From the NCBI RefSeq assembly GCF_056746865.1, contig NZ_CM163382.1: a DNA stretch of 64,000 nt; one strand, given 5' to 3'. Position numbers and translations under genes: made by a program. Of the stretch, positions 12,720-13,358 are shown piece after piece. The notes below the pieces were generated by a model. The model saw only the letters and a list, made by a program, of their open reading frames with translations. It ran no database searches and was not told the DNA's origin. Every line of letters begins with the position of its first letter. The stretch's first letter is position 1.

Positions 12720-12896
12720 GTGAAACAAAGCGAGTTCAGACGTTGGCTCGAATCTCAGGGCGTCGATGTGGCGAATGGCAGCAACCATTTGAAACTCAGG
12801 TTTCAAGGGCGACGCAGTGTCATGCCGCGTCACCCCAGTGATGAGATAAAAGAACCATTGCGTAAAGCAATCCTGAAGCAACTCGGTTTGAGTTAA
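12720..12896 (+). CDS. hicA: HicA toxin (mRNA interferase), GTG start
   Basis: Not in the ORF track (58 aa); GTG at 12720 gives VKQSEFRRWLESQGVDVANGSNHLKLRFQGRRSVMPRHPSDEIKEPLRKAILKQLGLS, immediately upstream of hicB. Confidence 0.8.
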   Translation: MKQSEFRRWLESQGVDVANGSNHLKLRFQGRRSVMPRHPSDEIKEPLRKAILKQLGLS

Positions 12897-12920
12897 TCGC
12901 CAATTAAAAAGGTTAATGAC

Positions 12921-13358
12921 ATGCGAGAGACAGTCGAAATTATGCGTTATCCCGTCACTCTTACACCCGCGCCGGAAGGCGGTTATATGGTTTCTTTTGT
13001 GGATATCCCTGAAGCGTTGACCCAGGGCGAAACAGTTGCTGAAGCGATGGAAGCGGCAAAAGATGCTTTACTGACCGCATTTGATTTTTATTTTGAAGAT
13101 AATGAGCTAATCCCGTTGCCTTCGCCATTAACTAACAACGATCACTTTATTGAAGTGCCTTTAAGTATCGCCTCTAAAGTATTGCTGTTAAATGCTTTTT
13201 TACAGTCAGAAATCACTCAGCAAGAGTTAGCCAGACGAATTGGCAAACCTAAACAGGAGATTACTCGCCTATTTAATTTGCACCATGCGACAAAAATCGA
13301 CGCCGTCCAGCTCGCGGCAAAGGCGCTTGGCAAAGAGTTATCGCTGGTGATGGTTTAA
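12921..13358 (+). CDS. hicB: HicB antitoxin
   Basis: 145-aa ORF (alternative ATG at 12942 gives 138 aa); N-terminal RNase-H-like part and C-terminal HTH; follows hicA. Confidence 0.85.
   Translation: MRETVEIMRYPVTLTPAPEGGYMVSFVDIPEALTQGETVAEAMEAAKDALLTAFDFYFEDNELIPLPSPLTNNDHFIEVPLSIASKVLLLNAFLQSEITQQELARRIGKPKQEITRLFNLHHATKIDAVQLAAKALGKELSLVMV

Follow-up and report, generated by a model that had tools for sequence, protein, structure and literature searches.

The locus described here was found in a stretch of 64,000 nucleotides (contig NZ_CM163382.1, assembly GCF_056746865.1), which is referred to in full as the window. On its plus strand, positions 12720–13358 hold what we read, with a probability of about 97%, as the chromosomal hicAB type II toxin–antitoxin operon of Escherichia coli, with the toxin gene first. 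The ORFs listed for this interval were a GTG-initiated frame of 58 aa at 12720–12896 (+), an ATG-initiated frame of 145 aa at 12921–13358 (+), and a TTG-initiated frame of 65 aa at 12684–12881 (−). The genes and other features of the locus are the following.

12499–12719, plus strand: intergenic region between yncJ and hicA, expected to hold the distal promoter P1 (reported to be CRP-Sxy dependent in K-12)
12670–12687, no strand assigned: GTAAACA-N4-TGTTTAC, a perfect inverted repeat and candidate operator of HicB (hicO) in the −35 region of the proximal promoter
12684–12881, minus strand: antisense ORF with a TTG start, 65 aa, spurious and not a gene
12693–12701, plus strand: extended −10 element TGATATACT, candidate promoter P2 (TATACT, 5/6 positions; a TG lies one base upstream of it)
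12710–12715, plus strand: Shine–Dalgarno sequence GGGAGG of hicA, 4 nt before the GTG, read from the sequence
12720–12896, plus strand: hicA, GTG start, 58 codons plus stop, mRNA interferase toxin HicA, a variant with H29Q and C40S relative to K-12
12921–12941, plus strand: optional seven-codon N-terminal extension of hicB (MRETVEI), present in the longest ORF of 145 aa
12942–13358, plus strand: hicB, 138 aa, the RefSeq CDS in strain 118UI and in K-12

The two genes are co-oriented and adjacent, 45 nt apart, which is the layout of a type II toxin–antitoxin system. The pair goes beyond what chance would give: hicA has a strong Shine–Dalgarno sequence, and both products scored above the Pfam gathering score and matched solved K-12 structures (E = 9e-34 for HicA and 3e-84 for HicB). 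The first-pass annotation had proposed a plus-strand hicAB pair of this known type, with a GTG-initiated hicA of 58 codons, and the family and structure matches, together with the ORF at 12720–12896, bear it out. The product of hicA is identical at 56 of 58 positions to K-12 HicA in the crystal structure 6HPB (chain A, E = 8.8e-34), and it matches the Pfam family HicA_toxin (PF07927) with 34.5 bits against a cut-off of 27, residues 5–57 covering profile positions 3–58 of 58. It is a single-domain protein of 58 aa, in a family (PF07927/COG1724) for which 50–100 aa are expected, and its His23, the known catalytic residue of E. coli HicA (PMC8138530, PMC11594946), is aligned with and identical to that of 6HPB chain A. 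The gene is annotated at exactly the same coordinates in strain 118UI. K-12 HicA is a ribosome-independent RNase that causes growth arrest when alone (PMC11594946), and the protein of the window, which differs from it at 2 of 58 residues, is probably active in the same way.

HicB is identical to chain B of 6HPB and 6HPC at 134 of 138 positions, and the 145-aa form to 6U0I at 141 of 145. The partial RNase H domain at its N terminus was detected as HicB_lk_antitox (PF15919, scoring 32.0 bits with the cut-off at 27) and its helix-turn-helix (HTH) as HTH_3 (PF01381, 31.4 bits against 23), at residues 95–141 of the 145-aa form. With a HicB that carries a C-terminal HTH, the locus belongs to class 3 in the scheme of Gerdes (2024). 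A search of NCBIfam returned no match for HicA or HicB, and PADLOC matched the HTH region of HicB only, marginally (E = 6e-4); the match was not taken as an assignment to a defence system.

The locus lies at the same site as in E. coli K-12 (hicA b4532, hicB b1438), between yncJ and ydcR, and the gene order sutR–rlhA–yncJ(−)–hicA–hicB–ydcR–ydcS is common to both. When the region was aligned to that of K-12 MG1655, the check proposed along with the first reading of the locus, 29 differences were found in 961 aligned positions (about 97% nucleotide identity), with no indels. The lengths of both genes, the GTG start, the Shine–Dalgarno sequence, and the intergenic sequence between hicA and hicB are the same, as are the upstream palindrome and extended −10. 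Four synonymous and two non-synonymous codon changes separate the hicA genes, and 13 synonymous and four non-synonymous changes separate the hicB genes, the latter giving N64T, S65N, H66N, and V76I (138-aa numbering). Pooled, these are 17 synonymous and six non-synonymous changes, and both sense frames are under purifying selection. The hicAB locus of the window is intact and at its usual chromosomal site in E. coli, a textbook module that was already known. An 881-nt stretch with the locus is 100% identical in many E. coli chromosomes, where PGAP names both hicA and hicB.

The entire window is the same as E. coli 118UI (NZ_CP032515.1), except for one SNP and a 1-nt indel; the indel is near 35709, in a hypothetical gene after the M35 peptidase. 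Elsewhere in the window, a second type II toxin–antitoxin pair lies at 61638–62200 (−), again toxin-first, with a RelE/ParE-family (HigB-like) toxin followed by yddM, an antitoxin of the HigA family. Two further small genes that fall below a 60-aa cut-off are annotated in 118UI: yncL (21870–21965, −), for a stress-response membrane protein of 31 aa, and ortT (22160–22333, +), for an orphan toxin of 57 aa. In fdnG, positions 57402–57460 (+) matched the Rfam family SECIS_3 (84.3 bits, gathering score 63) and correspond to the selenocysteine insertion element already known from formate dehydrogenase-N. At 32175–38700 and about 40744–42092, a strain-variable island adjoins yncG and contains a T6SS PAAR protein, VgrG/TssI, the M35 peptidase, hypothetical genes, and an ISAs1 remnant, and a copy of IS1397 adjoins nhoA.

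Of the 5426 complete E. coli genomes covered, 5414 contained the locus, nearly always in one copy; it is lost or broken in about 40%, which indicates that it is dispensable. The main states of the locus are as follows, with deletion coordinates given as positions of the window.

Intact 3′ half of hicA: the window, K-12, and O157:H7; 3231 of the 5426 complete genomes (60%)
12837–12858: 22-nt frameshifting deletion in hicA; O104:H4; at most about 990 genomes, an upper bound obtained by subtraction and not by direct count
12675–13119: 445-bp deletion; Nissle 1917; about 1200 complete genomes (about 22%)

In the O104:H4 strain FWSEC0009, PGAP describes hicA as "frameshifted; internal stop", and hicB is intact. 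The 445-bp deletion runs from the middle of the palindrome to about codon 60 of hicB, so that P2, hicA, and the N-terminal domain of HicB that binds HicA are gone and an HTH-only hicB pseudogene is left. The allele of the window is intact and is a minority one, being at least 99% identical in about 150–180 genomes.

Two other readings of hicA were weighed against that of an intact toxin gene. The minus-strand frame of 65 aa is the longest ORF across 12684–12881, and several older genome annotations list its K-12 form as a hypothetical protein; were it the real gene, the plus-strand GTG frame would be a coincidence. We give this practically no credence. The antisense product has no match in Pfam or NCBIfam, and the ORF is without RefSeq annotation in both 118UI and K-12, whereas the plus-strand product matches a solved and functionally characterised protein. 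Its TTG start lacks a Shine–Dalgarno sequence, the predicted duplex with the 3′ end of the 16S rRNA reaching −1.9 kcal/mol against −11.1 kcal/mol for hicA, and all six codons changed relative to K-12 are non-synonymous in the antisense frame, against four of six synonymous in the frame of hicA. Because of this ribosome-binding, codon-change, and family evidence, the antisense ORF is regarded as a by-product of the hicA sequence. The same comparison led us to reject as a gene a plus-strand ORF of 53 aa at 12680–12841, which showed no synonymous and six non-synonymous changes relative to K-12. It could also be supposed that this strain carries a degraded pair, whose toxin is inactive or whose antitoxin is non-cognate, as other E. 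coli lineages often do. Degradation is indeed common elsewhere, by the deletions of the O104:H4 and Nissle types, just 60% of the complete genomes keep the 3′ half of hicA, and the minority allele of the window carries two substitutions in HicA and four in HicB. Against this, both frames are intact and full-length, His23, the Shine–Dalgarno sequence, and the upstream region are kept, synonymous changes predominate over both genes, and the HicB substitutions appear to lie beyond the α1 helix that packs on HicA, judging from the description of that helix (PMC10865869). Decay is therefore highly improbable here, and an intact hicAB operon is retained as the reading of the locus; no observation speaks against it.

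The start of hicB is less firmly fixed. The first-pass annotation placed this gene 24 nt downstream of hicA, which is the correct gap between the hicA stop (12896) and the ATG at 12921; measured to the curated start at 12942, the gap is 45 nt. Use of the ATG at 12921, or of both starts to give two isoforms, is possible but rather unlikely. This ATG is the first start in the ORF, and it is preceded 8 nt upstream by a Shine–Dalgarno-like AAGG whose duplex is slightly stronger than the one at 12942 (−3.4 vs. −3.0 kcal/mol), both being weak. The 145-aa protein folds and was crystallised (6U0I), and its length is the commoner one in automated gene calls. On the other side, 138 aa is the length used by RefSeq for K-12 (NP_415955.2), by PGAP for 118UI, and by UniProt (HICB_ECOLI), and the structure of the functional complex, 6HPB, was built with 138-aa HicB. 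The Pfam domain covers the long form from residue 10 onward, and tblastn matches in other genera begin at residues 7–10 of this form. Among the E. coli strains compared, positions 12897–12941 showed no sequence variation, so variation within the species cannot discriminate between the starts and distant plasmid homologues were used instead. The hicB CDS of Arsenophonus nasoniae (MFYPAKF) has its first residue aligned precisely with M8 and shows the motif M-x-YP. In Variovorax, the CDS starts MFSYPARV and the frame opens just one codon upstream, which makes an N-terminal extension impossible there. We thus consider the ATG at 12942, giving 138 aa, the probable start of hicB. Both lengths are held in public databases, 145 aa with 1372 cluster members, mostly automated metagenome and assembly calls, and 138 aa with 664 members, including the PGAP and UniProt entries, and each has a crystal structure. 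A literature search by PDB codes found nothing on the 145-aa construct.

The first-pass annotation also held that the ORF track displays only the antisense frame over hicA, since hicA is below 60 codons, and the ORF list agrees. Which ORFs such a track displays is defined by its cut-off of 60 aa; of the ORFs that overlap hicA, the antisense frame alone reaches this length, and a track of this kind therefore displays nothing else there. The further statement of the first-pass annotation, that automated calls can mis-orient the locus, has precedents in deposited records. By exact-sequence look-up, the antisense ORF in its K-12 form was traced to records of a "hypothetical protein" from EDL933 (O157:H7; AAG56338.1) and SE11 (BAG77043.1), and also from strain 53638, O55:H7 CB9615, and Shigella dysenteriae Sd197 (ABB61855.1). 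This spurious ORF even has UniRef entries. It is rare, with a cluster of 14 members, compared with HicA on more than 1000 contigs. In every sampled RefSeq genome that retains the hicA sequence, PGAP gives hicA its right orientation, whether called a gene or a pseudogene. The concern over mis-orientation of hicA is historically valid but is not a current problem.

Upstream of hicA, the positions of promoters and operator were taken from the reviews and from our reading of the sequence. A palindromic operator has been described at P2 (PMC10865869, PMC11594946), and the inverted repeat at 12670–12687, which is identical in K-12 and O104:H4, is a candidate for it by its position and by those published descriptions; a 7-nt repeat would arise by chance at about the frequency seen and is not statistically unusual alone. 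Directly after the palindrome, a custom scan found the extended −10, which a standard promoter and terminator scan had missed and which may correspond to P2. Transcripts from this candidate promoter are predicted to start at about 12708–12710, at the 5′ edge of the hicA Shine–Dalgarno sequence. A palindrome with the same 7+4+7 layout lies 19 nt ahead of hicA in the hicAB homologue of Variovorax, and this slightly favours the operator assignment, Variovorax being the only homologue that is suggestive in this respect.

The region 12499–12719 differs from K-12 at three positions (12588, 12666, and 12667), the last two lying 5′ of the palindrome's left arm, at a distance of three and four bases. 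Searches of 12499–12722 for TGCGA-N6-TCGCA, for the asymmetric CRP-S form of E. coli, and for the canonical motif of CRP returned no convincing site for P1 and no CRP-S match with two or fewer mismatches; the best matches reached 7 of 10 core positions. Because just those three positions of the upstream region differ from K-12, any CRP-S site of K-12 is probably retained. Neither Cameron and Redfield (2006) nor Sondberg (2019) refers to hicA. At the other end of the operon, the standard scan found no terminator after hicB, with no terminator-like hairpin in the spacer between hicB and ydcR (13359–13436). Two overlapping promoter-like sites (13376–13413) and, by eye, an AT-rich inverted repeat (AGTTGT-N8-ACAACT) were seen in this spacer. 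Transcripts of hicAB may read through into ydcR.

The mechanism has been established for K-12 and is set out in reviews and by Gerdes (2024) (PMC11594946, PMC8138530, PMC6957337, PMC10865869); with a nearly identical sequence, RNase activity, neutralisation by HicB, and the logic of P1 and P2 would be expected to be the same here. Free HicA, with its dsRBD-like fold, would cleave mRNAs and tmRNA as a ribosome-independent endoribonuclease and bring about growth arrest. Neutralisation would occur as helix α1 of HicB's partial RNase H domain packs on the β-sheet of HicA and covers His23, and the complex of the two proteins is seen in the K-12 crystal structure 6HPB. HicB would dimerise by way of its C-terminal XRE-type HTH to form a HicA2B2 complex, and it would bind the palindromic operator at the proximal promoter P2. 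The distal promoter P1, with a CRP-S site and activated by Sxy, would give an mRNA encoding both HicA and HicB. P2 would be repressed by HicB at hicO and derepressed once HicA exceeds HicB, and its transcript, with a short leader, would yield HicB only, thereby restoring the excess of antitoxin.

Other class 3 modules, with HTH-type HicB, were found on pArsFIN11 of Arsenophonus nasoniae and on plasmid 3 of Variovorax sp. WDL1. Like the operon of the window, they are toxin-first, encode a HicA of 58 aa and a HicB of 138 aa with M-x-YP at its N terminus, and have a palindrome upstream of hicA. They differ in that they are plasmid-borne, beside mobile-element or phage genes, in having other operator sequences and a spacing of 9 to 65 nt between hicA and hicB, and in a HicB that is only 44–49% identical. 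A further group comprises the modules HicAB3 of Yersinia pestis, HicAB of Burkholderia pseudomallei, and HicBA of Streptococcus pneumoniae. These share the HicA fold and catalytic histidine, the histidine is masked by HicB's partial RNase H domain as in E. coli, and HicA excess derepresses transcription (PMC11594946). However, the DNA-binding domain of their HicB is a ribbon-helix-helix, whereas that of the window is an HTH, and they form hexameric or octameric assemblies, whereas the E. coli type is A2B2. In this comparison, the two-promoter arrangement has been shown for E. coli only.

For annotation, the locus is instructive: with 58 codons and a GTG start, a functional toxin gene drops below a 60-aa cut-off, and a longer, spurious antisense ORF stands above it. 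The same mis-annotation is found in several of the early genome records of E. coli and Shigella, and the start of hicB still varies by pipeline, between 145 and 138 aa. For E. coli itself, strains with the 22-nt deletion are left with the antitoxin and repressor HicB and without its toxin. Translation of hicB may begin at both in-frame ATGs (12921 and 12942) and so yield isoforms of 145 and 138 aa with different behaviour, for instance in stability or operator binding, and the minority allele pair of the window (HicA Q29/S40 with HicB T64/N65/N66/I76) may have a toxin–antitoxin or operator specificity shifted from that of K-12. That one or both of these should hold is improbable; either one, if true, would refine a well-known system only slightly.
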